Source: an uncultured Muribaculaceae bacterium
Lineage (GTDB): Bacteria; Bacillota_I; Bacilli_A; RF39; UBA660
Length of the DNA: 64,000 bases
Assembly (NCBI GenBank): GCA_964407685.1
Contig: CAYOWI010000001.1
Location: 34,169 to 98,168, forward strand
Reading direction: 5' to 3'
A program made the position numbers and the translations under genes. Below, piece by piece: positions 2 to 59,400 of this stretch. A model generated the notes under the pieces. That model was not told where the DNA came from and did not search any database. It was given only the letters and a program-made list of their open reading frames with translations. How positions within the stretch are numbered: the stretch's first letter is position 1; every line of letters starts with the position of its first letter.

Positions 2-1444
2 AGTAAAAAAGAAATAACAATTGATGATTTACTGGAAAATCTTAAGATCTATAATGAAGAGTCTATATCAAAAGTTCGTAAAGCTTATGATATGGCAAAT
101 ACACTTCATGCTGGTCAATTAAGACAAAGTGGTGAGGACTATATAATTCATCCGTTAAATGTGGCTTACATTCTATCAGGATTGAGGGCAGATTCTGATA
201 CTATATGTGCAGGGTTATTACATGATACTTTAGAAGATACAAACATCACTAAAGAAGAAATTGCAGAAAATTTTAATAGTGATGTAGCTAATTTAGTAGA
301 TGGAGTAACTAAAATAAGTAAGATGAATTTTTCATCTAAGCAAGATCAAAATCTTGCTAATACTAGAAAAATAATAACTGGTATAACAACTGATGTAAGA
401 ATAATATTAATTAAACTTGCTGATAGATTACATAACATGAGAACATTACAGTTTAAAAGTGAATTTAAACAAAAAGAAAATGCATTAGAAACGTTAGATA
501 TATTTGTTCCAATGGCTTATTATATAGGAGCATATAGAATAAAGCAGGAATTAGAAGATTTATCATTAAGATATTTAAAATCTGATATGTATAAAAAGAT
601 AAGTGAGAAAAAGTTAAGGATAGAAGAAGAAAGCAATCCTTGCTTAGCAGAAATGTTACAAACAATAAAAAATATGCTTAATGATGAGAATATACCTAAT
701 GAAATAAAGGTAAGAACCAAAAACATATATGGAATATATAAGAAGCTATCTGAGGGTGGAAAAATATCTGATATACATGATTTGTTAGCACTTAAAGTAA
801 TGGTGGATGAAGTAAACAACTGTTATCAAACATTAAGACTTGTCCACAGTAAATATAATCCTGTTAATGGAATGTTTAAAGACTATATTTGTAATCCTAA
901 AACAAATATGTATAGATCACTTCATACTACCGTGTTTGCACCAGATGATAGATTGGTTCAAACGCAAATAAGAACATTTGATATGGATAAAGTGGCATCT
1001 TTTGGATTATCAACCTATTGGGATATTGAAAAGGGTAATGCAAGAGAAGTTATGCAAAAGGATTTAAAAGATAAATATCAGTTTTTTAATTCATTAGTAG
1101 AAATGGATAAAGTTTTTGGAGATAATAAAGAATTTGTATTACAAGTAAAAAATGAGTTATTTGCAGATAAAATATATGTTTATACAACCAAAGGAGAAAT
1201 AATAGAATTACCAAGAGGTGCAACACCAATAGATTTTGCTTATAAAATACATACTGATGTAGGTAATACAATGGTATCAGCTATAGTAAATGATGAGTAT
1301 GTGGATATAGATAAACCACTTAAAAACAAAGATAGGGTGAGAATAATAACCGATGATTTATCATTTGGTCCAAGAGCGGACTGGGAAGATAAAGCAGTTA
1401 CAACATACGCCAAAAGAAGAATAAGGGAGTTTAATAGGAAGTAA
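2..1444 (+). CDS. RelA/SpoT-family (p)ppGpp synthetase/hydrolase, 5'-partial at the window edge, ends ~35 aa after the TGS domain
   Basis: HD hydrolase motif (HDTLEDT), synthetase region (RSLHTTVF), TGS domain (YVYTTKGEIIELPRGATPIDFAYKIHTDVG). The frame is open from position 2, so the gene starts outside the window. No helical linker or ACT/RRM C-terminal half follows. Confidence 0.8.
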   Translation, partial: SKKEITIDDLLENLKIYNEESISKVRKAYDMANTLHAGQLRQSGEDYIIHPLNVAYILSGLRADSDTICAGLLHDTLEDTNITKEEIAENFNSDVANLVDGVTKISKMNFSSKQDQNLANTRKIITGITTDVRIILIKLADRLHNMRTLQFKSEFKQKENALETLDIFVPMAYYIGAYRIKQELEDLSLRYLKSDMYKKISEKKLRIEEESNPCLAEMLQTIKNMLNDENIPNEIKVRTKNIYGIYKKLSEGGKISDIHDLLALKVMVDEVNNCYQTLRLVHSKYNPVNGMFKDYICNPKTNMYRSLHTTVFAPDDRLVQTQIRTFDMDKVASFGLSTYWDIEKGNAREVMQKDLKDKYQFFNSLVEMDKVFGDNKEFVLQVKNELFADKIYVYTTKGEIIELPRGATPIDFAYKIHTDVGNTMVSAIVNDEYVDIDKPLKNKDRVRIITDDLSFGPRADWEDKAVTTYAKRRIREFNRK

Positions 1445-1504
1445 GATGTGAGTTTATAGTGATCTCTTATAAAAAAACTAAATCTAATTAATAAGGAGGC
1501 TAAT

Positions 1505-1561
1505 ATGAGAAAATTAATGAGAAAATTCAATAGAAAATACGATATGTTATGTACAGCATAA
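1505..1561 (+). CDS. 18-aa small ORF (MRKLMRKFNRKYDMLCTA): candidate leader peptide or short precursor peptide
   Basis: ATG preceded by AAGGAGG at 7-nt spacing. Basic peptide ending in Cys-Thr-Ala. Sits immediately upstream of the YcaO/radical SAM operon. Confidence 0.35.
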   Translation: MRKLMRKFNRKYDMLCTA

Positions 1562-1585
1562 TAAATCTTATTTACTTGGATTTTA

Positions 1586-1626
1586 TGTCACAATAGTATA
1601 CTGTTTTTTAATATACTATTGTGACA
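1586..1626. promoter_or_regulatory. Perfect 15-bp inverted repeat TGTCACAATAGTATA-N11-TATACTATTGTGACA (operator or attenuator hairpin) in front of the operon
   Basis: Seen directly in the sequence between the small ORF and the GGGAGG ribosome-binding site of the 1648 gene. No T-run immediately follows the stem. Confidence 0.6.
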
Positions 1627-1647
1627 ATAATTAGGGAGGCTTAATAG

Positions 1648-3261
1648 ATGGGAAATATAAAAGGTAAAATATTACCAGAAGAAATGAAAAAAGATATAGA
1701 TGATATTTTAGAAAAGCAATTATTTAATGCAAATAGGTATTATGCAGAATCAAATTTTAATATTAATAATTTAATGCAAAAAGAATTAATTGAAAACCCA
1801 GTTATATTTTATAAGAGATTAGTAGAACGTTGGAATTGGCATAATTTTTATTATGAAAACTTGCTTGAACCTGCATATCAATCTATTATTAGAGATAATG
1901 TTAAGGAATTATCAATAAGTGAAATTGATAATTTAATCAAAATATATGAAACATCATGTTTGGTGGATGAAGCAACATTGGTGATGTCAGGATCTATTAA
2001 AAAACATTTAAATTACTATTTGGATAAAATATCTATTGAGGATGAAAATATATCCTACGACGATGCTAAAAATATGCTAATAACACCACCGATAGAAACT
2101 TATTTTGCCAGATATCAAATTGACCATTTATATTATATATATTTGTTAAAAAAGAAGGATGAAAATGTCTTGAAATTTAAAGATTATTTGAAAAATAAAT
2201 ATCATGCATCTGATGAAATTATTTTTCAAAATAGGTTTAGAAAGAAATTTCAAAATTATATGAATATACCAGAAAAAGATTTGTTAAATGAAATAAAATC
2301 ATATAAAATATCCGATTCATATAAAGTACAACATTTTTACTTTACACTTGAACACCCTGAGAGGGCTGCTATCAGAGATATTTTAATATATGATAATTTA
2401 TATGAAAAATTAATTGCTTCCAATCTGATTGGAATATCAGGATTTTTGCTAAGAAGTAAAATTTTAGAATATTTAAACGATAGTAAAATTTTACCAAATA
2501 AAGGGTATATTTATGAATATAGTAATGAGGTTGTTATAAAGTGTTTAAAACAGCTTAAATTAGAAAGGAAAAAATATATGGAAAAAGATGTTAAACCTTA
2601 TAAGCAAAAAGGGGATACATGTGCTATTGCTTGTATGATGATGGTTTTAGAATATTATAAATTGATGGAAAAGGCCAACTGGTATGATGAAAAAAGGTAT
2701 TATAAAAAATTTGGTTCTAAATTCATGCCAGGTACACCATTTTCAGCTATAGCTTATTATTTTTCAAAGAGTGGATTGGATACTACAATTTATCATTCAG
2801 ATGAAAACAGTTTCAATAATGATAAAGGTGCTTTAAGTGAAACGATTTTTAATCTAGCAATGGAAGAATATACCGATTATTTAAAACTTGCAAAGTTAAA
2901 GGGAACAAATATAATTTGTGGTAGTGATATTAACAGTGATATATTGCGAAAAAATTTAGAAAATGGAAATTTAGTTATAATTGCTGGAGAATTATCAGGT
3001 GGATATCATGCGATATTATTGTGTGGATATGATAATGATGAATTTATTGTTTGTGATCCTTTGTTTAAACAAAAACAAAGAAGAACTATTGAGGAAATTA
3101 ATAGTTTTATGAATACTAGTATTGGAAAATGGTTCATATCAGTGAGTGATGTAAAAGAAAAAAAACTTGATTTGGTTAATAGTTTAGGAGATTATAACAA
3201 TAAATCAACTGAATATTTAAATAATACTCACGAAAAGGGAGTAAACTATGTCAAAAAATGA
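1648..3261 (+). CDS. Protein with a C-terminal C39-like papain-fold Cys peptidase domain; ~320-aa N-terminal region of unknown function
   Basis: KQKGDTCAIACMMMVLEY matches the Q-x4-DCG-AC catalytic Cys motif of bacteriocin-processing C39 peptidases. A downstream His (GGYHAILLCGYD) is consistent. GGGAGG ribosome-binding site. Confidence 0.55.
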   Translation: MGNIKGKILPEEMKKDIDDILEKQLFNANRYYAESNFNINNLMQKELIENPVIFYKRLVERWNWHNFYYENLLEPAYQSIIRDNVKELSISEIDNLIKIYETSCLVDEATLVMSGSIKKHLNYYLDKISIEDENISYDDAKNMLITPPIETYFARYQIDHLYYIYLLKKKDENVLKFKDYLKNKYHASDEIIFQNRFRKKFQNYMNIPEKDLLNEIKSYKISDSYKVQHFYFTLEHPERAAIRDILIYDNLYEKLIASNLIGISGFLLRSKILEYLNDSKILPNKGYIYEYSNEVVIKCLKQLKLERKKYMEKDVKPYKQKGDTCAIACMMMVLEYYKLMEKANWYDEKRYYKKFGSKFMPGTPFSAIAYYFSKSGLDTTIYHSDENSFNNDKGALSETIFNLAMEEYTDYLKLAKLKGTNIICGSDINSDILRKNLENGNLVIIAGELSGGYHAILLCGYDNDEFIVCDPLFKQKQRRTIEEINSFMNTSIGKWFISVSDVKEKKLDLVNSLGDYNNKSTEYLNNTHEKGVNYVKK

Positions 3262-3565
3262 TTATTTATTTTATAGAAATTATATAAAATATAGAAAAAT
3301 CTCTAAAGAAAAAATATTGATTACAAGAACAAATAATTCATATTTAATTGGTCCAATTATAAATAATAAATTTGATGAGGAATCATTTTATAGGCGATTA
3401 ACATCTAATAGTATTTATTCACGAAGATATTATAAAAAAATGTTTAAATTAACTGCAAATAGTCTAATAAAAAAATATATGGATTATTTAAATAGTAATG
3501 AGGTATTAGAAGTATTTAAAAATGGTGACACAAAAATACACAAAATTATAAAAGTTCCAAAATAA
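3248..3565 (+). CDS. Small basic Tyr/Arg-rich hypothetical protein (105 aa)
   Basis: ORF overlaps the upstream stop by 14 nt (translational coupling). No recognisable domain. Confidence 0.4.
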   Translation: MSKNDYLFYRNYIKYRKISKEKILITRTNNSYLIGPIINNKFDEESFYRRLTSNSIYSRRYYKKMFKLTANSLIKKYMDYLNSNEVLEVFKNGDTKIHKIIKVPK

Positions 3566-3625: not shown

Positions 3626-4900
3626 ATGAAAAATAAATTGATTTTAGATAGAGATGAAATAATTAATATATTAGGTGATAAGTATGCAAGTTTATCTGAT
3701 ATATTTAGCGATAAATTTGGTATTGTAAATGCTATGTTAGAAAGACATGAACTGGATAAGTATAATCTTTATATGTATCAATGTTTGAGTGCTAATGTTA
3801 TGGAACTATTTGATTTAACTAGGGAAGTTTCAAGTGGTGGACTTGGAGTTCATGAGGATAAAAAAATCGCAATGATAAGCTGTTTAGCAGAAGCATTAGA
3901 AAGATATTGCATGTCTTTTATTCCTAGAGGCGATTTAATTACTTGTAGAAAAAGTGATTTGGATAAAAAATATGTTTTTCCGTCTTTTTTTACTTATAAT
4001 AAGGACCAATATTCTCAAAATAAAAAATTTTTGGATCCTAATAATGATATTATTGAATGGACGAAAATAGTTAGTCTAAATAATAAAAAAGAATTCAAAT
4101 ATTGGCCAGCAAGTTTAATATATTTGCCATATGAAATAAACTCTGTTGTAGCAGAAACTACATCTACTGGTATGGCAGCAGGCTTTGATATAAATGAATG
4201 TGTTGAAAGTGGATTAATGGAATTAATTGAAAGAGATAGTTTAATGATTAATTTTATGCAAAGGCTAAATCCCCCGGAAATTAATTTAGATACAATTGGC
4301 GGTAGAAATAAAGAACTTATTTCAAAGATAAAAAAAGAATATAATATAAAAATATATCAATTATATTCTGATATAGATGTACCAATTTATCTTTCTATAA
4401 TTTATAAAGAAAATAATAAAGATACACATTATGGTATTGGAGCTTGTGCAAATTTTGATTCCGATTACGCAATTAATAAGTCTTTAAAAGAATGCTTGTT
4501 TACATATTTTTATTCTTTGAATATATTGGATGCGAAGGTTGAAAATCCTAATGATATTAAAGCTTTGTATGAACATTTTTTATATTATCAAGGGAATAAT
4601 TTTAAGGATTTATTATTTGATAGTAAAATTATTAAATATGAAAGAAAAAAAACTTCGTTAAAAAAGGTGCTTGAAGATTTGAAATCTAAAAATATTGATG
4701 TATTTTATAAAGAATTAACAACAAGTGATATTAAAGCGACAAAAATAAAGGTGTTGAAGGTAATTGCTCCAGGGCTTATAGATATGCATAAAAGCCATAC
4801 ATTACCACGTTTAGGAGCTGAGAGATATTGGAGTGTTCCTAGAAAATTAAATTTAAATTATTTTAAAAAATTATTTGATAAACCGCATCCTTTTCCATAA
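3626..4900 (+). CDS. YcaO-domain protein, azoline-forming (cyclodehydratase) type
   Basis: SSGGLGVHEDKKIAMISCLAEALERYCMSF matches the YcaO ATP-binding/Ser-Gly and ExxER signature. The protein ends ...KPHPFP, the PxPxP C-terminal motif typical of azoline-forming YcaOs. Confidence 0.85.
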   Translation: MKNKLILDRDEIINILGDKYASLSDIFSDKFGIVNAMLERHELDKYNLYMYQCLSANVMELFDLTREVSSGGLGVHEDKKIAMISCLAEALERYCMSFIPRGDLITCRKSDLDKKYVFPSFFTYNKDQYSQNKKFLDPNNDIIEWTKIVSLNNKKEFKYWPASLIYLPYEINSVVAETTSTGMAAGFDINECVESGLMELIERDSLMINFMQRLNPPEINLDTIGGRNKELISKIKKEYNIKIYQLYSDIDVPIYLSIIYKENNKDTHYGIGACANFDSDYAINKSLKECLFTYFYSLNILDAKVENPNDIKALYEHFLYYQGNNFKDLLFDSKIIKYERKKTSLKKVLEDLKSKNIDVFYKELTTSDIKATKIKVLKVIAPGLIDMHKSHTLPRLGAERYWSVPRKLNLNYFKKLFDKPHPFP

Positions 4901-4921
4901 CTATTTGTGAGGTATTTAAAA

Positions 4922-5887
4922 ATGAAAAATAAAAAATTAGTAAATCTATTTGTTGAATTATTAAATATTATTGATAGAAGTCAAATAGATAAAATTAAAT
5001 TAGAAATTGATTTAAAAGATGATAATATTTATTCAATACTTGATAAAATTTGTTTACATTTTAATACATTATATAATTCTGGCTCGATAACTGTAGGGAA
5101 ATACAACATGATATTAAATGTTATTAATAAATATTATGATGAGCGGGATGATTATATTTATAATAGGATAGATTGGATTAATGAAGCATATCTAAATAAT
5201 CCCAAGATTACTTTAGAGAATCATCATCAGCAATTATTGTCATATTTTCAAAAAATAAATAATATTTTGGATAAATCTGGAATTGATTATTTTCATGCAA
5301 GTGGATTTATGGGTTATATATTATCAGGCAAAGAATTAGAAAGATATCATCATGATATTGATTTGTATATAAATGAAAGGTGTTTAAATAATTTAATTGA
5401 TATTTTTTTAAAAGAAGATTTTAATGTTATTCACACCCATGAAAAATGTAGAGAAAATTTATTTAGACATGGCTTTAAAATAGAAAGCAATAGTGTGGAT
5501 ATTCCTATATGGTTATCTTTTTATGAACTTCTTTCAGATGGTGCAATATACGTTAAAGAATACTATGAAGACAAAGACAAAAATTATATTACAAAAAGAA
5601 ATTATAATACATCATTATGTACATTATTGAGTTTGACTGAGGGTAATTATAATGGTACAAATTTTAAATCTATGAGTTTAGAGGCACTTTATTGTAGTAA
5701 AAATGGTAATCGAAAAAAAGATATTTATGATTGTAATGTTATAAAAGAATTAATAGATATAAATAAAGTTGAGACACTAAAACAAGAATTGATATCAGAG
5801 TGGGAAATACTAAATTATATACCAATTTCAATTATAGACGGAATTGATAAAATCGATTGCAGAAAGGAGTTGAAGTACTATAAATAA
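4922..5887 (+). CDS. Nucleotidyltransferase-fold protein (Lnu/LinB-like, Pol-beta superfamily)
   Basis: YFHASGFMGYILSGKELERYHHDIDLYI fits the hG[GS]-x(9-13)-DhD nucleotidyltransferase motif, as in lincosamide nucleotidyltransferases. GTGAGG ribosome-binding site 9 nt upstream of the ATG at 4922. Confidence 0.5.
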   Translation: MKNKKLVNLFVELLNIIDRSQIDKIKLEIDLKDDNIYSILDKICLHFNTLYNSGSITVGKYNMILNVINKYYDERDDYIYNRIDWINEAYLNNPKITLENHHQQLLSYFQKINNILDKSGIDYFHASGFMGYILSGKELERYHHDIDLYINERCLNNLIDIFLKEDFNVIHTHEKCRENLFRHGFKIESNSVDIPIWLSFYELLSDGAIYVKEYYEDKDKNYITKRNYNTSLCTLLSLTEGNYNGTNFKSMSLEALYCSKNGNRKKDIYDCNVIKELIDINKVETLKQELISEWEILNYIPISIIDGIDKIDCRKELKYYK

Positions 5888-5933
5888 ATTACCAAAAAAT
5901 GAATATAGAATTTCAATAACCTCATCATGCAAT

Positions 5934-6755
5934 ATGAAATGCACGTATTGTCATAATGAAGGTAATAAAAGGATTAGCAAATTAAGCATAGATGACATTA
6001 GATGTATTGTTGAAAATTCAAAAGGATTAAATCTAACTAATATGAGATTAACGGGCGGAGAACCACTAATACATCCTGATATTTATAAAATTTGTAAAAT
6101 GCTTTCAGAAGAATATAATCTTAAAGTAGGTATTAATACTAATTGTATTGAAATCGATAAAATTATTTACATGATAAAAAAGGGCTGGATTGATAGAGTA
6201 GTTGTAGGTTTAGACTATTTTGATGGTGTCGTATCTAAACAATCATCAGTAGGAAAAAGTTCAAAGGAAATTTTATCTAATATATTAAAAATAAAAAGAT
6301 TAGGTTGCAATGTTTCAATTTCAACTGTATATAATAATGATTATGATAATATATTTAAATTAGTTGATTGGTGTGTTAATAATAAAATAAGAATTAAAAT
6401 TATAGAATTAATAAAAAATGAAATACATAAAAAATCTGATTTAAATTATATAAAAATGAGAGATTCAATCATTAAAGATTATAAATTTAGGGTTAAGATT
6501 GATAAATTGGAAGAATATAATTGTTTTATAGAGAATTTCAATGTAGTATCTTTTTTTCCATCATTATGTAGATTAAGAAGATGTGATATATGTAAGAAAG
6601 TACATCTTAGAATTACAAGTGAAGGTAATATAAAGCAATGCATTCATTATGGAAAAAATGATAAAAGTGTAATAGGAAAAGATAGTAGAGTAAATATATT
6701 AGAAGAAATAAATCATGAGGTTGATTATCATTATGAGGTTAAAAATGAAGTATAA
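5934..6755 (+). CDS. Radical SAM enzyme with C-terminal Cys-rich auxiliary (SPASM/twitch or MoaA-like) region; start codon uncertain
   Basis: CNMKCTYC is a CxxxCxxC motif, GGEPL is an SAM-binding motif, and the C-terminus reads CRLRRCDICKKVHLRITSEGNIKQC. The first Cys of the cluster lies upstream of the first ATG (see findings). Confidence 0.8.
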   Translation: MKCTYCHNEGNKRISKLSIDDIRCIVENSKGLNLTNMRLTGGEPLIHPDIYKICKMLSEEYNLKVGINTNCIEIDKIIYMIKKGWIDRVVVGLDYFDGVVSKQSSVGKSSKEILSNILKIKRLGCNVSISTVYNNDYDNIFKLVDWCVNNKIRIKIIELIKNEIHKKSDLNYIKMRDSIIKDYKFRVKIDKLEEYNCFIENFNVVSFFPSLCRLRRCDICKKVHLRITSEGNIKQCIHYGKNDKSVIGKDSRVNILEEINHEVDYHYEVKNEV

Positions 6756-7104
6756 AATATTTTGTCATGGTTTTTTAAGAAATAAAAATAGAATTTTATA
6801 TTTAAAAAGAGGAAAAGATAAAATTTATCCATATAAATGGGATTTACCAGGAGGATTTTGTGAATCGAATGAGACGTTCCAAAATTGTATTGTGAGAGAG
6901 TTTAAGGAAGAAACTAATCTAGATATATCTGTTATAGATTTGATTGATTTAAAATGCCAAATTTATAATGATGAAATTATAATTGTTCTTTTATTTGATG
7001 TGAAGCTAGAATCCAAAAGAAATATTAATTTAAATTTTGAACATATAGATTATGAATATTCAGATTGTTTAAAAGGTAAAGACATTATATGGTATTTAAA
7101 ATAA
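6745..7104 (+). CDS. Nudix hydrolase
   Basis: Nudix box GGFCESNETFQNCIVREFKEETNL (GX5EX7REUXEEXGU). ATG at 6745 with a GAGG ribosome-binding site. 4-nt overlap with the radical SAM stop. Confidence 0.75.
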   Translation: MKYKIFCHGFLRNKNRILYLKRGKDKIYPYKWDLPGGFCESNETFQNCIVREFKEETNLDISVIDLIDLKCQIYNDEIIIVLLFDVKLESKRNINLNFEHIDYEYSDCLKGKDIIWYLK

Positions 7105-7120: not shown

Positions 7121-7765
7121 TTGATTAATTATCAATTTAGTGGTATTAATCCTGAAAAGGGTTTTACAAAAAAGCAAGCTGATTGCTTAAAAAAAGATAT
7201 CAAAGACAATTCAAATATAGTTTTTATCGCTAGTATATTTAGTGATTACAAGAAGAATGATGAGTTATTTAAAAATTATATAGAATATTTTGAAAACAAC
7301 AATATTAAATTTAGAAAATCAAGTATTATTGATGATAGAATTTCTATTACTTTAGCCCATGAATTAATTAATGATGCTGATATAGTATTTTTACTTGGTG
7401 GAAATCCGGAAATGCAAATGAAATCAATTAATAAATATGATTTAAAGAAATATATAAAAAAAGTAAACATAGTAATAGGTGTAAGTGCCGGTTCCATGAA
7501 TCAGTCTAAAAGAGTTATGTATAAAGATGATTTTGAAAATTTTAAGATGAAGGATTATGAGGGATTAGGATTAGTGAAAATAAATATTTTTCCGCATGTA
7601 GATTTAAATAATAGTTCTATTATGAATGAGGTGACTGAAATAAGTAAATACATGGAGCTTATTTTATTACCTAATGATTCGTTTATAAGGGTATATAATA
7701 ACAATATAAAATTCTTTGGGAATTATTATTTAATCAAAAATAAAAATTTAAAAACAAATGTTTGA
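7121..7765 (+). CDS. Peptidase S51 family (dipeptidase E / cyanophycinase-like) protein
   Basis: GGNPEMQ and GVSAGSM (nucleophile Ser) motifs. TTG start with a GAGGAGG ribosome-binding site. Confidence 0.65.
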   Translation: MINYQFSGINPEKGFTKKQADCLKKDIKDNSNIVFIASIFSDYKKNDELFKNYIEYFENNNIKFRKSSIIDDRISITLAHELINDADIVFLLGGNPEMQMKSINKYDLKKYIKKVNIVIGVSAGSMNQSKRVMYKDDFENFKMKDYEGLGLVKINIFPHVDLNNSSIMNEVTEISKYMELILLPNDSFIRVYNNNIKFFGNYYLIKNKNLKTNV

Positions 7766-8047
7766 CAAAAAGAATAAAATATATTAGAATTGGTTTATAT
7801 TTTTAAATTGCTGATTTGGAGAAGTAAATATTAAAGAAACTTATAGAAAGTAACTGGCAGATGGAAAGTTATAGTGGATTAATATTGAATGGACCAATGA
7901 GAGTTTTTCTGAAATTATATTATAAAGAGTAGGTAAAATCGGAATTTCTATCCGTTATCAAATGAACATATATGATGGTATATGATTTTAATCTATTTTT
8001 AGGTGGCACAAGACTCTTGTCCTATTTTGGGTGGGCAGAGTCTTTTT
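7762..8047 (+). promoter_or_regulatory. Sigma-A promoter (TTGACA-17-TAGAAT) plus T-box riboswitch leader with Trp specifier, controlling trpS
   Basis: Specifier-like UGGA in the stem I region. T-box-like AGGTGGCACAAG. Terminator hairpin GACTCT...AGAGTC followed by TTTTT at 8012-8047. Confidence 0.7.
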
Positions 8048-8136
8048 ATATTTTAAGGAGTTGATAAGAATGTTTTTATTAACCAAACGATGGTATTTTG
8101 TATTTTTGTTTTAAAATAAAATAATTAGAAAAGAGA

Positions 8137-9138
8137 ATGAGTAAAATGAAAACAATGATTACAGGAGTTAGACCAACAGGTATTATAACTCTAGCAAATT
8201 ATATTGGGGGAATTAAAAAATTTGTCCAACAACAAAGGGATTATAATTCATTAATTTTTATAGCGGATATTCATGGCCTTACTACTTATATTAATCCGGA
8301 TGAAATACAAAATAATATCCTTGATATTACTGCCCTTTATTTAGCCTGTGGTATAGATTTATCTCACACCATTATTTTTCAACAAAGCGATGTTTTAGAA
8401 CATTGTAATTTAGGTTTTTTGATGGCATTTCAATGTGGTGTTGGTGAATTATCTAGAATGACCCAATATAAGTCAAAAAAGTCAGAACTGTCTAAAGCGA
8501 ATAAAGATATGGGATTATTCATATATCCAACATTAATGGCAGCGGATATTTTATTATATGATGCATCGGTTGTTCCGGTTGGCGTAGATCAAAGACAACA
8601 CATAGAAAAAACAAGAGATTTAGGTGAAAGATTTAATAAAGTTTATGGTAAAACATTTGTACTTCCAGAGTATCAAATTCCTAAAATAGGAGCTAAAATA
8701 AAGAATCTACAGAATCCTCAAATAAAGATGAGTAAATCTGCCCCGAAAGATGATAAGGGTACGATATTCATTTTAGATGATGTTGAAATAACAAAAAAGA
8801 AAATAATGATAGCAGTAACGGATAATGAAGGAAAGATTTATTTTGATGAAAAAAATAAGCCTGGCATATCAAATCTTTTATCTATTATAGCTGTTATAGA
8901 TAATTTGAGTATTGAAGAAGTTTCCTTAAAATATAAGGATTACACTTATAAGGAATTTAAAATAGAAGTTGCTGATAAAGTTGCAAAATTTATTTTGGAT
9001 ATTCAAGATAAATTTTATAGTTTCAGAAATGATGAAAGATATTTAAAAAAAGTATTAAATGATGGAGCAGCTAAAGCAAAAAAACTTGCAAGTAAAAAGA
9101 TGAACCAAGTTAAAAAGTTAGTTGGAATAAAAACATAA
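8137..9138 (+). CDS. trpS: Tryptophan--tRNA ligase
   Basis: Class I aaRS with KMSKS motif (KMSKSAPK) and TrpRS-like N-terminus. T-box with UGG specifier upstream. Confidence 0.9.
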   Translation: MSKMKTMITGVRPTGIITLANYIGGIKKFVQQQRDYNSLIFIADIHGLTTYINPDEIQNNILDITALYLACGIDLSHTIIFQQSDVLEHCNLGFLMAFQCGVGELSRMTQYKSKKSELSKANKDMGLFIYPTLMAADILLYDASVVPVGVDQRQHIEKTRDLGERFNKVYGKTFVLPEYQIPKIGAKIKNLQNPQIKMSKSAPKDDKGTIFILDDVEITKKKIMIAVTDNEGKIYFDEKNKPGISNLLSIIAVIDNLSIEEVSLKYKDYTYKEFKIEVADKVAKFILDIQDKFYSFRNDERYLKKVLNDGAAKAKKLASKKMNQVKKLVGIKT

Positions 9139-9279
9139 AGATTCGTTAAAATAAAAAATCTCACATAAAATATTTGACAAGGACTAAAATATTTGTTAAG
9201 GTTATAACAACAGTGAGTTTGAGAAAGAAATTATTTTTAATTTCAAGCCTCAAAGGGTGAAGAACCTACACGTACTATT

Positions 9280-9317
9280 GCACGGAGTCACTTTTATAGT
9301 GATAACGTGCTTTTTTG
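9280..9317 (+). terminator. Intrinsic terminator/attenuator hairpin inside the leader of the GNAT gene
   Basis: GCACGGAGTCACT-TTTAT-AGTGATAACGTGC followed by TTTTTTG. Lies downstream of a TTGACA promoter-like element and upstream of the GNAT ribosome-binding site. Confidence 0.5.
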
Positions 9318-9348
9318 TTTATCACTATTAGATAAGGAGGTGAATTTT

Positions 9349-9915
9349 ATGATACATAAGGGAACTAAGACTTTAGAAACAGCTAGGTTATTGCTTAGAA
9401 GATTTAAATTAGAAGATGCACAAAAAATGTACGATAATTGGGCTAGTAATCCAAACGTTTCTAAATATGTTACGTGGGATGCTCATAAAGATGTTAATGA
9501 AACCAAAGCTTTGTTAGAAGAGTGGGTTAAAAGATATGATAGTTTAGAGACTTATAAATGGGTTGCTGAACTAAAAGATACAAAAGAGATAATTGGTTCA
9601 ATAGACGTTGTATCAAAAACGTTTTTACCATATGGTGTCTGTGAGATAGGTTACTGTTATGGTGAGGACTTTTGGGGTAAAGGTTATGGTACAGAATGTT
9701 TAAAGGCGGTAATTAGATACTTATTTGAAGAATGTGATGCTGATGTTATATGCGCAGGACATTTATCACAAAATCCTGGTAGTGGTAAAGTAATGATAAA
9801 GAGTGGTTTAACTTATGAAGGAACTCAAAGAGGCAGGTTTATTGATTCTGATGGAATAAGAAATGATTTGCTAACATATTCTTTGACTAAAGAAGAGTAT
9901 AAAAAAATGAAATAA
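9349..9915 (+). CDS. GNAT family N-acetyltransferase (RimL/RimJ-like)
   Basis: RLLLRRF...ED N-terminal region and GNAT core (IGYCYGEDFWGKGYGTE). AAGGAGG ribosome-binding site. Confidence 0.75.
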   Translation: MIHKGTKTLETARLLLRRFKLEDAQKMYDNWASNPNVSKYVTWDAHKDVNETKALLEEWVKRYDSLETYKWVAELKDTKEIIGSIDVVSKTFLPYGVCEIGYCYGEDFWGKGYGTECLKAVIRYLFEECDADVICAGHLSQNPGSGKVMIKSGLTYEGTQRGRFIDSDGIRNDLLTYSLTKEEYKKMK

Positions 9916-9925
9916 GGTAATTATT

Positions 9926-10651
9926 ATGAAAATATTTTTAACTAGTGATTTATTAAATTATAAAAAAGTAAACAATAAACATATTCCTACTAAGATAAAC
10001 AATGATAATGGTATAGTAGATCAATTAAAAGAAAACTTAAAAGGCAATAGAGATATAGTATTTTTTGCCTCGTCTAAAAGTGATTACTCTAAAACCGATA
10101 ATTACGCTAATATCTTGTTTGAATCTTTGAAATTATCTGGTATTTCGTTTTATAATTACTATATTATAGATGATAGGTTTAAAGGTAGTATAAAAAGTAT
10201 AATAGATAAATGTGATATGGTATTTATTGCGGGTGGAGATACTTTAGAAGAAATGAAATTTTTTAATGATATAGAATTGAAAGATTTATTAAAAGGTTAC
10301 AATGGAGTTATTATGGGAATAAGTGCAGGAGCAATCAATTTGGCATATGATGTTTATAATAGTCCAGAATTTAAGGAAGATTTAGAAAAAGAATCAAAAT
10401 GGAAGGGTTTATGTTTAACTCATATTAATATAGAACCACACTTTGTGTATTCTGATAAAAGTTTTACTCAAAATGAAAAATTGCAAAGAAAAGAAGTCTT
10501 AAAGGAATCTTATAATAGGGTATTATATGGCCTTTTAGATGGAAGCCATATAACTGATATTGATGGAAGAGTGAATTTTTATGGTACTTGTTATAAAATA
10601 TCAAATGGAAAAATCACTTTGATATGTAAAAACAATAAAAGAAGTATATAG
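9926..10651 (+). CDS. Peptidase S51 family protein (paralogue of the protein at 7121-7765)
   Basis: IAGGDTLEEM and GISAGAINLA motifs, with the same architecture as 7121-7765. Confidence 0.6.
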   Translation: MKIFLTSDLLNYKKVNNKHIPTKINNDNGIVDQLKENLKGNRDIVFFASSKSDYSKTDNYANILFESLKLSGISFYNYYIIDDRFKGSIKSIIDKCDMVFIAGGDTLEEMKFFNDIELKDLLKGYNGVIMGISAGAINLAYDVYNSPEFKEDLEKESKWKGLCLTHINIEPHFVYSDKSFTQNEKLQRKEVLKESYNRVLYGLLDGSHITDIDGRVNFYGTCYKISNGKITLICKNNKRSI

Positions 10652-11224: not shown

Positions 11225-13288
11225 ATGAGAAAGAAAAAAAATAGTAAGTGGTTAGTTGGTCTTTTTATAACACTACTTGTTGTAGTGCTAATTATTCTCA
11301 TAAACTTTAGTAAGGGTTCAAAAGAAAATACCAAACTAAATTTAACCGAAAAAAAATGGATTGAGAATAATAAAAAAGATGTAATAAATGTTTCGATTGC
11401 AAATAACATACCGGGTTTTAGTAGTGAAGGAGAAGGGGTATTTTTTGACTATATTAAAAAATTAGAAGAAAAAACTGACTTATCTTTTAACTTGATTTCT
11501 TACGATGCTGATGAAGATACAACTACAAATGATTTATATTTTGAAGTTGTAAAAGGAGATTTAGTAAATAAATTATCTGATGATGATATGGTGTTTTTTA
11601 AAGACTATTATGTATTAGTAAGCAAAGATGAAGATAAAATAACTGATCCTGGTAACATAATAAATAAAAAAATAGGTGTATTAAGTAGTGATTTAGCACT
11701 TGTTAGTTATTTTATACCATCATCTAACGGAATATCATATACTTCGTATCAGAATTCTTCTGAAATAAAAAATGCGCTTACGAGTTCTAGTGTTGATTAT
11801 ATTGCCATTCCAAAAACTAGGTATTCATCATATATAATATCTAATTCATATCACGTTGTATACAACATGACTGAGTTAAAGGAAGCGTATGTATTAAAGA
11901 CTTCTAAAGATACAAATAAGAATTTATCCAGCATTGTTAGAAAAAACTTTATAGAGTATAAAAATGATACGTTACAGAACGTATATAATGAAACTTTAAT
12001 GGGATTATTGTTAGAGGAAAATAATATATCTGAAAAATCAAAAGCGGACTTTTTAAGTAAAAAATACGTTTTTGGATATTTAGAGAACGAACCATATACT
12101 AACACTATTAATAATAAACTAATTGGTCTTGATAGTACGTACATCAATTCGTTTAGTTCGTTAACTGGGGCATCCTTTACCATCAAAAAATATCGTTCTG
12201 TTAAAGATTTAGCTAACGATTTTAACAATGGTAAGGTTGATGTTGCACCTAATTATTATAATTATTCCAATTTAAAGGGAAATTATGCAAAAACTATTTC
12301 TCCATATGATGAAGAGTACGTCGTTTTAGTTTATAATACGAAAACTAATGTTGTTGTTAATTCAGTAAGGTCATTAAAAGATAAAAACGTCGTAACAACT
12401 AATAGTACTTTGGCTAGATTTTTGGAAAAAGAAGGAAAAGCTAAAGTAAAAGCATATGATAGAGTTAGTCAGTTAATTAAAAATATAAATAAAGATAGTT
12501 TAATTATATTAGACAAAAACGTTTATGAAATGTATAAAGATAGTGAGTTATCTAAGTACCGTGTAATTTATAACGATAAAGAAAACCTTGAATATGGTTA
12601 TATAATAAGAGATGTAAACGAAAATAGTACATTTAAAAAATTATTCATAACTTATATGGAAATGTCTAATTATAAACAGTTATATAATGTTGCATGGAAA
12701 GAGTTTAAGGTTGATTCTAAAGAAATAAGTTATACTTATTTATACATAATTGGAGCTTTAATACTAGGATTTATAGTATGGCTTTTTGCAAAGAAGAAAA
12801 TAAAGATTAAAAAGAAAGCAAAAAGAGAAGAAACAATTAGATATATAGATCCACTTACTTCTCTTAAAAATCGTAATTATTTAAATAAGAACTTTAAAAG
12901 ATGGGAAAATAATTCTATTTATCCTCAAGCAATAATAGTTATTAATTTAAATAATTTAAGACACGTAAATGATGTATATGGTCATGAAGAAGGAGATAAA
13001 TTAATTAGGTTAGCGGCTAATGTTTTAATAAAAAATCAGTTGGATCAAAGTGATATTATAAGAACCGATGGTAATGAGTATTTAATTTACATGGTTGGGT
13101 ATGAGAAAAATAAGGTTGTTACTTACATGAGAAAGTTATATAAAGAATTAGGGGAACTTCCTTATGGTTATGGAGCAACGCTTGGTTATAGTATGATAGA
13201 AGATGATATTAAAACGATTGATGATGCTATAAATGAAGCTGTTTTAGAAATAAGAGCAAATAAAGAAATGAATAATAAGGGTAAGTAG
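11225..13288 (+). CDS. Membrane sensor with periplasmic solute-binding-like region and C-terminal degenerate GGDEF domain
   Basis: N-terminal TM, ~480-aa extracytoplasmic region, second TM, then a GGDEF-like domain (RYIDPLTSLKNRNYL...). The signature is RTDGNEY instead of R[YF]GG[DE]EF. Confidence 0.7.
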   Translation: MRKKKNSKWLVGLFITLLVVVLIILINFSKGSKENTKLNLTEKKWIENNKKDVINVSIANNIPGFSSEGEGVFFDYIKKLEEKTDLSFNLISYDADEDTTTNDLYFEVVKGDLVNKLSDDDMVFFKDYYVLVSKDEDKITDPGNIINKKIGVLSSDLALVSYFIPSSNGISYTSYQNSSEIKNALTSSSVDYIAIPKTRYSSYIISNSYHVVYNMTELKEAYVLKTSKDTNKNLSSIVRKNFIEYKNDTLQNVYNETLMGLLLEENNISEKSKADFLSKKYVFGYLENEPYTNTINNKLIGLDSTYINSFSSLTGASFTIKKYRSVKDLANDFNNGKVDVAPNYYNYSNLKGNYAKTISPYDEEYVVLVYNTKTNVVVNSVRSLKDKNVVTTNSTLARFLEKEGKAKVKAYDRVSQLIKNINKDSLIILDKNVYEMYKDSELSKYRVIYNDKENLEYGYIIRDVNENSTFKKLFITYMEMSNYKQLYNVAWKEFKVDSKEISYTYLYIIGALILGFIVWLFAKKKIKIKKKAKREETIRYIDPLTSLKNRNYLNKNFKRWENNSIYPQAIIVINLNNLRHVNDVYGHEEGDKLIRLAANVLIKNQLDQSDIIRTDGNEYLIYMVGYEKNKVVTYMRKLYKELGELPYGYGATLGYSMIEDDIKTIDDAINEAVLEIRANKEMNNKGK

Positions 13289-46632: not shown

Positions 46633-47584
46633 AACATTATACGTAGTCGTGCCATGTTATAACGAAGAAGAAGTATTAGAAGAAACAACAAAAAGATTAA
46701 AAGAAAAATTAAGTAAACTAATAAATGATAAAAAAATATCAAATAAAAGTAAGGTAATGTATGTAAATGACGGTTCAAAGGATAATACTTGGGAACTAAT
46801 AAAGAAAATAAATAAAAAAGAAAAGCTATTTACAGGAATAACTCTATCAAGAAATAGAGGACACCAAAATGCGTTATTAGCAGGTCTTATGACTGCTAAG
46901 ACTTACGCTGATGTAGTAATAAGTATGGATGCAGACTTGCAAGACGATATAAACGCTATAGATGAAATGATAGATAAATATAACGCAGGATGTGATATTG
47001 TTTATGGAGTTAGATCCTCAAGAAAAAAAGATACTTGGTTTAAAAAGACTACCGCACAAGGATTTTATAAGTTTATGAAGTTAATGGGAGTAGATGTAGT
47101 ATATAATCATGCGGATTATAGATTAACAAGTAAAAGAGTGTTAGATGAGTTTGAAAACTTCAAAGAAGTAAACTTATTCTTAAGAGGAATGTTTCCTTTG
47201 GTAGGTTATACGTCAGATGTTGTATATTATGAAAGAAATGAGAGATTTGCAGGGGAGTCAAAGTATCCATTAAAGAAAATGCTTAACTTTGCATGGGATG
47301 GAATAACATCATTTAGCGTAAGACCAATAAGAATGGTATTAAATGTAGGAATAATAATATTTGCGATAAGTTTATTAGTATTATTATATTGCTTAATAGT
47401 TAAATTACTGGGAAAAACAGTTGAGGGCTGGACCTTTATAGTAGGATCAATATGGTTAGTTTCAGGAGTACAAATGTTATCAATTGGAATAATTGGTGAA
47501 TACATAGGAAAGATATATAGTGAAACAAAAGCAAGACCTAGATTTATTATTTCTGAAAACTTAGAGGAACTAAAAAGGGATTAG
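46625..47584 (+). CDS. GtrB/CsbB-like GT2 (undecaprenyl-phosphate sugar synthase) with two C-terminal TM helices
   Basis: VVPCYNEE...YVNDGSKDNT, DADLQDD and two C-terminal TM helices. Confidence 0.8.
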   Translation: MNKTLYVVVPCYNEEEVLEETTKRLKEKLSKLINDKKISNKSKVMYVNDGSKDNTWELIKKINKKEKLFTGITLSRNRGHQNALLAGLMTAKTYADVVISMDADLQDDINAIDEMIDKYNAGCDIVYGVRSSRKKDTWFKKTTAQGFYKFMKLMGVDVVYNHADYRLTSKRVLDEFENFKEVNLFLRGMFPLVGYTSDVVYYERNERFAGESKYPLKKMLNFAWDGITSFSVRPIRMVLNVGIIIFAISLLVLLYCLIVKLLGKTVEGWTFIVGSIWLVSGVQMLSIGIIGEYIGKIYSETKARPRFIISENLEELKRD

Positions 47585-47594
47585 ATAAAATTAT

Positions 47595-48149
47595 TTATTT
47601 ATCTAATCCCTTTTCTTTATTAAATTTATCCCATATATAGTTTATCACTGATTCATGATTTGGATATAATCCGTCTTCATTAATTATTTTTCTATTATTT
47701 ACGTATTGGTTAAAAGTACTAATTATTTTGGCAGGATTACCTCCTACAACACTATTATCAGGAACATCTTTAGTTACTATAGAACCCGCTGCAATAATAA
47801 CGTTATTTCCAATTTTAACGTTTGGCAATATAGTTACGTTACATCCGATAAATACATTATTTCCAATCTTTATTGGTGCACAGTTATAATAAAATTTAAA
47901 ATCATAGTTCATTTTATTTAATACTTTATCAATTACATCATGTGTTACAAAGGTAACTCCAGATGCCACAACAACGTTATTTCCAAAACTAATTAATTTA
48001 GGTTCATCTGGTATTATCCTTGGTTGAAAAAAGAAGTTTTCACCTACATGTTTAAATATATTATTTTTAATTAGTATTTTAGTCCTTTTATTAGCGTTTG
48101 GTATTAAATACATTTTAAGTTTTGTACTATATTTCATGTTGTCCTCCAA
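47595..48149 (-). CDS. Maltose/galactoside O-acetyltransferase-like hexapeptide-repeat acetyltransferase
   Basis: [46 protein letters not shown]. Confidence 0.75.
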
Positions 48150-58764: not shown

Positions 58765-58793
58765 TTGACTTTTTGAATAAAATATGGTATATT
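58765..58793 (+). promoter_or_regulatory. Near-consensus sigma-A promoter TTGACT-17-TATATT driving the ncRNA
   Basis: Seen in sequence. Predicted transcription start near 58800. Confidence 0.5.
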
Positions 58794-58799
58794 GTTTAG

Positions 58800-59400
58800 C
58801 CGTGGAGCAGTATTCTAGTTTGAATTGCACTATGAGGACGGGCCTAAAAATCCGTTAAAGAGCATACCTGTGAAACGTCTTGTGCTTGCTTCTTTCGCCC
58901 AGATTGGGGTGAGTGCTGGATATGAGTTTGCTGGGCTAGCTGTAATGGCATACAGATTATCAAGACCCATCAATACGCGGAGACTTAAGTGCGTGCAAGG
59001 CGTAGGACTTTGTACGGCTTGAGATTAAACCTACTATGTGGCTTGCGCTATGAGTAGTGTAGCTTGCCTTGAGTGAGGGTATTGGGAAGAAGGATCAGGT
59101 CTTTTCATCTAGGCATAGATTAAGGACTATTGCCTTCTGAAATTTCCCTTGCAAAAAAGAGCTAGTAGTGATTTGTTCATTTGAAGAAATTTCCTAGACT
59201 GTGACTTTCATGGAATTGCAGTGCGTACTAAGTGGTAATCAAGTAATGCTTGTCGCAAGGAAGCATGCCTTTTCTTAAATGGGAACGGCCGGATGGTAAC
59301 AGAAGGTGAAAAGGTGGGAAATCCAACTTGACCTAAGACGCAAAGTTTGTCATGAAAGATTCCACGCTATTTTAATTGTACTTATGTACAATCTTTTTTT
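58800..59400 (+). ncRNA. ~600-nt structured non-coding RNA candidate (OLE-like or ROOL-like large ornate RNA; class not confirmed)
   Basis: Local GC ~43% against ~27% background. No credible ORF. Own promoter and intrinsic terminator. Many locally self-complementary GC-rich segments. Followed by a 4-TM ~22 kDa protein gene. Confidence 0.55.

Follow-up and report, generated by a model that had tools for sequence, protein, structure and literature searches.

The window analysed here is the whole stretch of 64,000 nucleotides (64 kb) taken from contig CAYOWI010000001.1. Close to its start lies an 18-codon open reading frame (ORF), followed by a perfect palindrome and by an operon that contains a YcaO gene. 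The ORF covers positions 1505 to 1561 of the forward strand and, as read from the sequence, ends in a TAA stop codon (1559-1561). It is a real small gene, strongly conserved and beyond what chance would give. The ORF is probably translated, its product serving as the dedicated substrate of the downstream YcaO set, with the palindrome forming an RNA stem-loop between the two. An ORF of this length, a perfect 15-bp palindrome with an 11-nt gap behind it and a preceding AAGGAGG had been described in the original prediction, which was made from the letters of the window alone. The ORF and the palindrome were found as described, and so was the ribosome-binding site, with the correction that its spacer measures 5 nt and not 7 nt. 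The features concerned are the following.

1493-1499, forward strand: Shine-Dalgarno sequence AAGGAGG, followed by the 5-nt spacer CTAAT and the ATG at 1505
1505-1561, forward strand: 18-codon gene for a putative precursor or substrate peptide, MRKLMRKFNRKYDMLCTA (from conservation, linkage and codon pattern)
1586-1626, forward strand: intercistronic RNA hairpin, whose 15-bp stem is perfect and whose loop has 11 nt (from pairing, folding and strand comparison)
1633-1639, forward strand: Shine-Dalgarno sequence AGGGAGG, which serves the first enzyme gene and follows the hairpin at 7 nt, a spacing that is alike in most loci

A conserved and strictly linked 18-codon gene

Among the homologous loci, 30 distinct DNA versions of the ORF were found, which encode 20 distinct peptides. 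In every locus a GGAGG-type site is present 5 to 9 nt ahead of the start codon. The ORF is 85% identical to the window copy, with 90% identity at codon positions 1 and 2 and 72% at position 3; the flanks reach 31% over the 40 nt 3' of the stop codon and 42% upstream. Five residues of the peptide (Lys7, Phe8, Lys11, Asp13 and Cys16) are constant, while their codons vary (TTT/TTC, GAT/GAC, TGT/TGC). Thr17 occurs in 29 of the 30 DNA versions and is a Cys in the other one, the C-terminal residue is Ala, Ser, Val or Gly, and the remaining substitutions exchange Arg for Lys or Met, Leu, Ile and Phe for one another. The length is fixed at 18 residues (once 17) across metagenome-assembled genomes (MAGs) of Bacilli, Clostridia and Paceibacterota. 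It is the conservation across loci that makes the ORF more than a chance occurrence, which the window alone would not show. No NCBIfam model matched the peptide (queried padded with XX).

The gene is strictly linked to that of a 537-residue protein directly downstream. Homologues of this protein form 141 homologous clusters, nearly all of them from MAGs of uncultured 'Bacilli', 'Mycoplasma sp. CAG', Tenericutes and Clostridia. A genome scan, with one genome per species, gave 61 loci. In all 29 loci with a full-length homologue, the ORF lies just upstream, has exactly 18 codons and is preceded by a GGAGG-type site; metagenome contigs added 10 further copies of the ORF. Over 183 loci from genomes and metagenomes together, the part of the gene encoding the N-terminus of the 537-residue protein is present in 39, of which 38 have the 18-codon ORF, and the ORF was never found without this gene (0 of 183 loci); the loci share descent, so that these counts are of non-independent events. 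Conservation of the small ORF in homologous loci had been named as a check in the original prediction, and it holds.

The 39th locus (L030, a Paceibacterota MAG) contains a 17-residue version, MKFIKKFDKKYDLLCTA, which is located between the gene for the C39-like peptidase and the gene for the 105-residue protein p105. There the peptide gene has its own promoter (TTGACT-N17-TATACT) and is followed by a hairpin and then by the T-run TTTTATTT. Because the sequence has been kept while the position in the cluster changed, the peptide gene does not appear to be a mere leader. The relA gene that usually precedes it is absent in L007, L015, L018, L027, L030 and L031, yet the Cys-Thr-tailed peptide is still linked to YcaO.

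Some of the loci appear to have decayed. L022 lacks the peptide gene together with the first 137 residues of the 537-residue protein, and in L023 and L026 relA is fragmented; L026 also has the one upstream pseudoknot (described below) in which the helix P2 is broken. About 30 loci (L028 and L032-L061) encode stand-alone C39-like proteins of about 200 residues, which are homologous to the C-terminal domain of the 537-residue protein only and are accompanied by neither YcaO nor peptide. No near-identical DNA was found in plasmids. In the literature nothing was found that matches the peptide sequence, the upstream motif sequence or the gene combination, and a 2015 survey of thiazole/oxazole-modified microcins (TOMMs) does not mention these taxa.

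The YcaO enzyme set and the predicted role of the peptide

The genes downstream of the hairpin are co-oriented and tightly packed, and no terminator was predicted between relA and the small ORF (positions 1000-2000). The operon that had been placed immediately after the palindrome is indeed there, with the correction that its first gene encodes the 537-residue protein and that YcaO comes third.

92-1444, forward strand: RelA/SpoT homologue that has HD and synthetase domains and is truncated after its TGS domain; it precedes the small gene in most loci (Pfam, synteny)
1648-3261, forward strand: 537-residue protein, a helical domain (residues 1-300) and a C39-like cysteine peptidase (Pfam, structural model, alignment)
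3248-3565, forward strand: p105, 105 residues without a known domain, overlapping the preceding gene by 14 nt and confined to this system
3626-4900, forward strand: YcaO of the SagD-like azoline-forming type, C-terminus PHPFP (Pfam, NCBIfam, structures)
4907-5887, forward strand: p326, 326 residues, a helical N-domain and a nucleotidyltransferase fold (LnuA / ANT(2'')-like, HHDxD motif; structural model)
about 5880-6755, forward strand: MoaA-like radical S-adenosylmethionine (SAM) enzyme, in a subset of loci (Pfam, NCBIfam, synteny)
6715-7104, forward strand: Nudix hydrolase, in the same subset of loci as the radical SAM enzyme (Pfam, NCBIfam, synteny)
7121-7765, forward strand: S51 peptidase, PepE-like (domain scan)
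8137-9138, forward strand: tryptophanyl-tRNA synthetase, TrpRS (domain scan)
9307-9915, forward strand: RimL-type GNAT acetyltransferase (domain scan)

The near-universal core across the loci consists of the peptide, the 537-residue protein, p105, YcaO and p326. Genes for the radical SAM enzyme and the Nudix hydrolase are limited to a subset, and in L002 the cluster ends with p326.

The YcaO protein matches Pfam PF02624 with an E-value of 2e-43. It aligns end to end with TIGR03604 (SagD) at 193.5 bits, under the curated cutoff of 219.25, and its closest solved structures are MusD, LynD and TruD. The C-terminal PHPFP was found in 36 of 36 homologues; a C-terminal motif of this form (PxPxP) has been tied to azoline-forming YcaOs (PMC12338566). 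TIGR03266 matches the protein weakly, and no TfuA-type thioamidation partner was present among the proteins scanned by Pfam.

Two of the partner proteins could be assigned a fold. In the model of the 537-residue protein (predicted local distance difference test, pLDDT, 92), the C-terminal domain superposes on the C39 peptidase domains of ComA and PCAT1, and its Cys325, His454 and Asp470 are invariant among the homologues. The helical N-domain belongs to a family of 77 representatives, in which it stands alone, is fused to the C39-like domain or, once, is joined to PPDK_N and PEP-utilizer domains (P0240, 850 residues, without a C39-like peptidase). This domain would fit a substrate-binding module. 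The model of p326 (pLDDT 91) matches LnuA and ANT(2'')-Ia; the window protein itself gave no match in Pfam, and PF14907 was found in one p326 homologue. NCBIfam holds no model for the 537-residue protein, p105 or p326, and profile searches of PDB sequences with these three proteins gave nothing credible.

The small gene is adjacent to the YcaO gene set, co-oriented and co-inherited with YcaO, its product has Cys and Thr in the core region, and the YcaO is of the PxPxP kind; these are the traits looked for in the precursor of a peptide that is made on ribosomes and modified after translation (RiPP). Because an azoline-type YcaO and a strict co-occurrence come together here, the peptide with its Asp-Met-Leu-Cys-Thr-Ala tail is most likely a dedicated substrate and not a leader peptide. 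Of the two roles that the original prediction had offered, the YcaO precursor is the one favoured by the strict co-occurrence, the coding conservation over the whole length, the invariant Cys16 and the azoline-type YcaO, all of which are read from sequence.

The pathway may then proceed as follows. Transcription would enter from relA or from the pseudoknot-containing leader, and the strong ribosome-binding site would yield abundant peptide. The basic N-terminal two thirds (M-R/K-R/K-L-x-R/K-K-F-N-R/K-K-Y) would act as recognition part, while the invariant tail D-[M/L]-[L/I/M]-C-T-[A] would be the part that is modified. In this scheme the PxPxP-type YcaO would form an azoline by ATP-dependent cyclodehydration of Cys16 and/or Thr17. 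The LnuA/ANT-like nucleotidyltransferase may subsequently attach a nucleotide to a hydroxyl group, and in some loci the MoaA-like radical SAM enzyme and the Nudix hydrolase could elaborate the product further. The C39-like cysteine peptidase domain would trim the peptide.

Several known systems show parts of this arrangement. As in the TOMMs or linear azol(in)e-containing peptides (SagBCD, McbBCD and the cyanobactin LynD/TruD/MusD), a small co-oriented ORF with Cys/Thr near the C-terminus lies beside a SagD-like ATP-dependent YcaO, this YcaO carries the C-terminal PxPxP, and a leader-type cysteine peptidase is part of the cluster. Unlike those systems, the YcaO here remains under the TIGR03604 cutoff, neither an E1-like or RiPP recognition element (RRE) partner nor a flavin mononucleotide (FMN) dehydrogenase was detected, and a nucleotidyltransferase, the helical domain and p105 take the place of the usual partners. 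The peptide itself differs as well, with 18 residues, one Cys and one Thr, and near-invariance across phyla.

With microcin C the system shares a substrate gene of tiny size behind a strong ribosome-binding site, a hairpin between this gene and the enzyme genes, and a nucleotide-transferring enzyme (here by predicted fold). In contrast to microcin C, no MccB/ThiF-type adenylyltransferase was detected (Pfam/NCBIfam) and the peptide does not end in Asn; the fold of the transferase is Pol-beta/LnuA-like, a U-tract is usually missing after the hairpin, and a YcaO is present. PqqA of pyrroloquinoline quinone biosynthesis and MftA of mycofactocin biosynthesis are likewise short, highly conserved precursors encoded first in a compact operon without an exporter, and a radical SAM enzyme is found in part of the present family. 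That enzyme is MoaA-like and optional, whereas neither a PqqD-like recognition element nor a PqqE- or MftC-type SPASM radical SAM protein was detected. The stand-alone YcaOs of bottromycin biosynthesis also work without a fused or detectable E1-like partner, and the Cys near the C-terminus with a few residues that could serve as follower is reminiscent of that system (PMC12338566). Its precursor has a long follower and no leader, unlike the present peptide.

Besides the shared descent of the loci, a number of observations speak against a dedicated YcaO substrate. With 18 residues the peptide is shorter than the known leader-plus-core precursors of azoline-forming YcaOs. A C39 peptidase would find no cleavage site of the Gly-Gly type in it: Gly is absent from 19 of the 20 peptide variants, a GG pair occurs in none, and no double-glycine site (GG/GA/GS) was found. 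The 'core' is nearly invariant across phyla, unlike that of antibiotic RiPPs. Among the operon proteins scanned with Pfam and NCBIfam there was no E1-like, Ocin-ThiF-like or RRE partner and no SagB-type FMN dehydrogenase, and the scanned cluster proteins included no exporter or immunity gene product. Finally, p105 has no detectable relatives outside this system, and the first 300 residues of the 537-residue protein are all-helical and have no match in the PDB. The original prediction, supported in part as a whole, had missed this apparent absence of the usual azoline-YcaO partners.

One alternative is that the peptide is a functional small protein, which could regulate the enzymes or the truncated RelA homologue or be a subunit of them, and that YcaO acts on another protein. 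Some YcaOs do act on proteins, as in the thioamidation of McrA, and the weak TIGR03266 match would agree with this. For a RiPP core the degree of conservation is unusual, neither a recognition-element partner nor an exporter was detected, and residues 2-11 of the peptide resemble the tail of the adjacent RelA (...KRKIKEFNKK). Against this, the YcaO is closest to the peptide heterocyclases and carries PxPxP, no TfuA-type partner was seen, and the Cys-Thr tail and the YcaO linkage persist where relA is absent, all of which makes a small protein of this kind unlikely.

The ORF could also be a regulatory leader peptide (an upstream ORF), whose translation would, together with the hairpin, attenuate or couple the enzyme genes, the peptide being without function. 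It is very short and lies right before the hairpin and the operon, in L001, L002, L011 and L142 the hairpin follows 0 to 12 nt past the stop codon, close enough for a ribosome that terminates there to reach it, and in microcin C ribosome binding at the tiny mccA ORF controls a terminator (PMC4231749). A leader would hardly account for the conservation of amino acids over the whole peptide with synonymous drift, nor for the Cys-Thr tail and fixed length that are kept across the MAGs of Bacilli, Clostridia and Paceibacterota. In addition, the alignment of the variants contains no regulatory codon runs, the distance between stop codon and hairpin varies from 0 to about 27 nt across the loci, and no conserved alternative pairing or helix was seen by eye. 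In L030, furthermore, the gene is flanked by an enzyme gene on either side and has a promoter and a terminator-like hairpin of its own. The second role in the original prediction, that of a regulatory leader, is not favoured by these findings and is regarded as quite improbable.

The best-supported reading, as far as sequences allow, is that the peptide heads an undescribed and atypical YcaO pathway. A standard azoline antibiotic is not indicated, because the usual partners were not detected, there is no exporter and the 'core' is nearly invariant; as the operon lacks an FMN dehydrogenase, a product, should there be one, would be an azoline or of another kind. It is conceivable, though at present rather doubtful, that the peptide is no antibiotic precursor and instead the scaffold for a conserved small product that the cell itself uses, such as a C-terminal fragment with a thiazoline and possibly an added nucleotide, which would act as cofactor or signal. 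This suggestion derives from the near-invariance across Bacilli, Clostridia and a Paceibacterota MAG, from the core cluster without exporter or immunity gene, and from the usual site right after a truncated RelA/SpoT gene and behind a preQ1-I-like pseudoknot. The pseudoknot might, as a riboswitch, sense a guanine-type signal. If true, there would be a new pathway to a peptide-derived metabolite, with a non-canonical, RRE-free recognition of the substrate.

If the peptide is what YcaO acts on, this would be a precursor of very small size and unusual conservation, handled by a helical domain, p105, a C39-like fusion and a LnuA-like nucleotidyltransferase and not by known leader-recognition proteins, and the rules for mining YcaO pathways would be widened. 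Such peptides are shorter than gene callers usually report, and no NCBIfam model would retrieve this one. Its hosts are gut bacteria with small genomes that have not been cultured, and hardly anything is known of their chemistry.

Three minor observations concern the neighbouring genes. The end of the truncated RelA homologue (1405-1444), ...AK(R/K)(R/K)I(R/K)EFN(R/K)K, resembles peptide residues 2-11 (RKLMRKFNRK, 1508-1537) in at least 20 loci; this could reflect a duplicated relA 3' end, a shared partner or AT-rich composition. In the radical SAM gene (5871-5940), the first ATG lies inside the CxxxCxxC motif, which is complete only with an upstream start. The frame is open upstream (..INKLPKNEYRISITSSCNMKCTYC) but contains no ATG, GTG or TTG there, so that the start in the window and in L014 (about 12150-12190) is probably ATA or ATT, behind AAAGGAG; the genes of L027 and L051 have ordinary starts. 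After the cluster (7121-10651, forward strand), an S51 peptidase, TrpRS, a RimL-type GNAT and a second S51 peptidase follow one another. The L052 locus (1194-3483), which has no YcaO, likewise places a short C39-like protein next to an S51 peptidase and TrpRS. The S51/TrpRS/GNAT group is reminiscent of immunity genes against aminoacyl-nucleotide inhibitors. No T-box was found in the window at the Rfam gathering threshold.

The intercistronic hairpin

The arms of the palindrome, TGTCACAATAGTATA (1586-1600) and TATACTATTGTGACA (1612-1626), are 100% complementary and 11 nt apart. The 86 nt 3' of the stop codon fold with -24.1 kcal/mol (z-score -5.7), a value that none of 200 dinucleotide shuffles equals. 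Perfect inverted repeats of at least 15 nt within 40 nt are rare, with just three in the window, and the arm sequence has no second copy in the 64 kb and is no dispersed repeat. The longest perfect inverted repeat of the window is found elsewhere, at 47573-47614 (17 bp, AAAAGGGATTAGATAAA / TTTATCTAATCCCTTTT, 8-nt loop).

A stem-loop follows the ORF in 33 of 33 distinct downstream regions. The stems measure 8 to 22 bp, and distant loci retain the pairing with stem sequences that are unrelated to one another. In 88% of the loci the hairpin is within the most stable 5% of the 50-nt windows of its locus. Its 3' end typically lies about 5 to 7 nt before the ribosome-binding site of the next gene (in most Bacilli-type loci); the spacing rows of WIN, L024 and L031 are unreliable, as the parser took inner mini-helices, and the stems for these were taken from separate folds. 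When each strand was optimised independently, the sense strand was the stabler one in 23 of the 33 regions and the antisense strand in 6 (Wilcoxon p = 7e-4), and the hairpins contain 58 G.U pairs in the sense against 11 in the antisense strand. Since the sequence differs between loci while pairing is kept, and since the sense strand is stabler, the hairpin acts as RNA. The original prediction had left the choice between a repressor operator and an RNA hairpin, and had proposed to look for conservation of the palindrome: what is conserved is the pairing and not the sequence, which supports a conserved RNA hairpin and not a repressor site.

At the mccA-mccB junction of microcin C, an intergenic terminator brings about a large excess of substrate message over enzyme message (PMC4231749). 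By analogy, the hairpin may set the ratio of peptide message to enzyme message: it would lower read-through and/or protect the 3' end of the short peptide message, with more substrate than enzyme message as the outcome. The effect could accordingly consist of termination, of pausing or of 3'-end protection. Termination in particular has points against it. The hairpin of the window does not combine a stable stem with at least 5 U in 8 nt, as an intrinsic terminator would, and no terminator-like site was called between 1000 and 2000. Across the loci the 8 nt after the stem contain 0 to 5 T, mostly 2 or 3, so that a U-tract is usually absent.

The hairpin is most improbably a full terminator of a relA-peptide transcript, with the enzyme genes being expressed from a promoter of their own. 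A TTTAT does follow the stem in many loci, and in L030 the hairpin is followed by a T-run. Nevertheless, the stem ends so close to the next Shine-Dalgarno sequence (about 5 to 7 nt) that there is no room for a promoter, the window has neither U-tract nor terminator call, and the genes are all on one strand and closely packed. That the palindrome is a DNA operator at which a dimeric repressor gates entry into the operon, as the perfect, unusually long 15-bp dyad just before the first enzyme gene could suggest, is scarcely credible, because an operator would be strand-symmetric and conserved in sequence and the hairpin, with its sense-strand wobbles and its unrelated stems of varying length, is neither, and because the cluster has no conserved regulator gene (synteny) and the site lies downstream of the peptide gene, within the transcription unit.

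The upstream pseudoknot and other elements

Between relA and the small ORF lies a further structured element, whose parts are listed first.

1450-1480, forward strand: H-type pseudoknot GAGTTTATAGTGATCTC-TTAT-AAAAAAA-CTA (from conservation and covariation)
1450-1452 with 1464-1466: helix P1, GAG paired with CTC
1457-1459 with 1478-1480: helix P2, TAG paired with CTA
1471-1477: A-rich tail; the loop reads TTTA-TAG-TGAT

The general form of the element (GAGUUUAUAGNGANCUC, a linker, A6-9 and CUA) was found in L001-L026, L051 and L062-L181, and it is conserved in at least 18 loci of the YcaO cluster. Loci without relA upstream have no pseudoknot and instead an ordinary TTGACx-N17-TAtAAT promoter, and in several loci an intrinsic terminator precedes the pseudoknot, no sigma-70 promoter separating the two. 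A pattern scan of metagenomes gave at least 120 stretches. Among the matches listed, about 12 precede the peptide, and the others precede unrelated genes, always shortly before a strong ribosome-binding site; these genes encode DNA methylases, arginine deiminase, histidyl-tRNA synthetase (HisRS), a pyridoxal phosphate (PLP) decarboxylase, methyltransferases, ribbon-helix-helix (RHH)-like proteins, pilin-like proteins and Cys-rich small ORFs.

In an N-padded alignment of fixed length and fixed register, the covariation score of the pseudoknot is 0.169 against 0.083 in shuffles; none of 500 shuffles reaches it and it is above all slid controls. The loop and tail triplets of P2 change together in the following combinations.

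Loop UAG with tail CUA
Loop AAG with tail CUU
Loop GAG with tail CUC
Loop CAG with tail CUG
Loop UGG with tail CCA
Loop ACG with tail CGU
Loop UCG with tail CGA

The pair adjoining GAG/CTC varies in step as well (U-A, C-G, U.G). In the window P1 has a U.U mismatch, and with a relaxed structural descriptor exactly one copy of the pseudoknot was found in the window.

The motif is absent from Rfam as a family, its only likeness there being PreQ1 with 10.2 bits. Like preQ1-I (RF00522), it is an H-type pseudoknot in which P1 is short, L1 is rich in U, P2 consists of 3 bp (UAG/CUA) and L3 is rich in A and ends in ...AAAAAACUA. It differs in its score, which is far from the gathering threshold of 39, in L2 (here GNGAN), in the expression platform, which is not evident, and in the downstream genes, which are unrelated to queuosine. 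In all three preQ1-I types a specificity C (UC or AC) is located just before the 3' strand of P1 (PMC11625349), while U, A, G or C is found at this position here. A true preQ1 riboswitch was rejected on the grounds of this variable base, the sub-gathering score and the lack of queuosine genes.

Other candidates were considered for the upstream motif and rejected. A sigma-70 promoter would have poor hexamers and a spacing that varies by 3 nt, and a T7-like promoter (TATAGGGAG) leaves the covariation between loop and tail unexplained. The GGA of a CsrA site is not conserved, a TRAP site was considered and dropped, and an intrinsic terminator would have a U-run and not an A-run after the stem. 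A phage origin was rejected with 2 matches in 2.9 million viral contigs. The pseudoknot could be a riboswitch for a global signal, a stabiliser of the mRNA 5' end, or an element for processing or ribosome loading. It is a separate candidate for a new class of structured RNA, located before many unrelated genes in the same lineages, in metagenomes with gut Bacilli and Clostridia.

Cys-rich small ORFs lie right behind the pseudoknot in L108, L131, L153, L168 and L179, and also in L144 and L101 (MKKETTKAVKPTISVVKANSSSFACASGTCHCSA, MENEKELEEVESVSCGTCNVN, MMKKIKKVKAASYCCESANE...); these may be further peptide precursors. A different arrangement was found in L110 (2740-2830) and related loci (L072, L106, L118, L121 and others), where an intrinsic terminator, the pseudoknot and a tiny ORF (e.g. 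MIFKKMKIP) precede a membrane-anchored protein of about 200 residues. Loci of the L110 type also have a conserved GTAACCAT element ahead of the upstream terminator. Finally, the window contains a full-length ornate large extremophilic (OLE) RNA at 58786-59381 (forward strand, 374 bits), its sole Rfam match above the gathering threshold.

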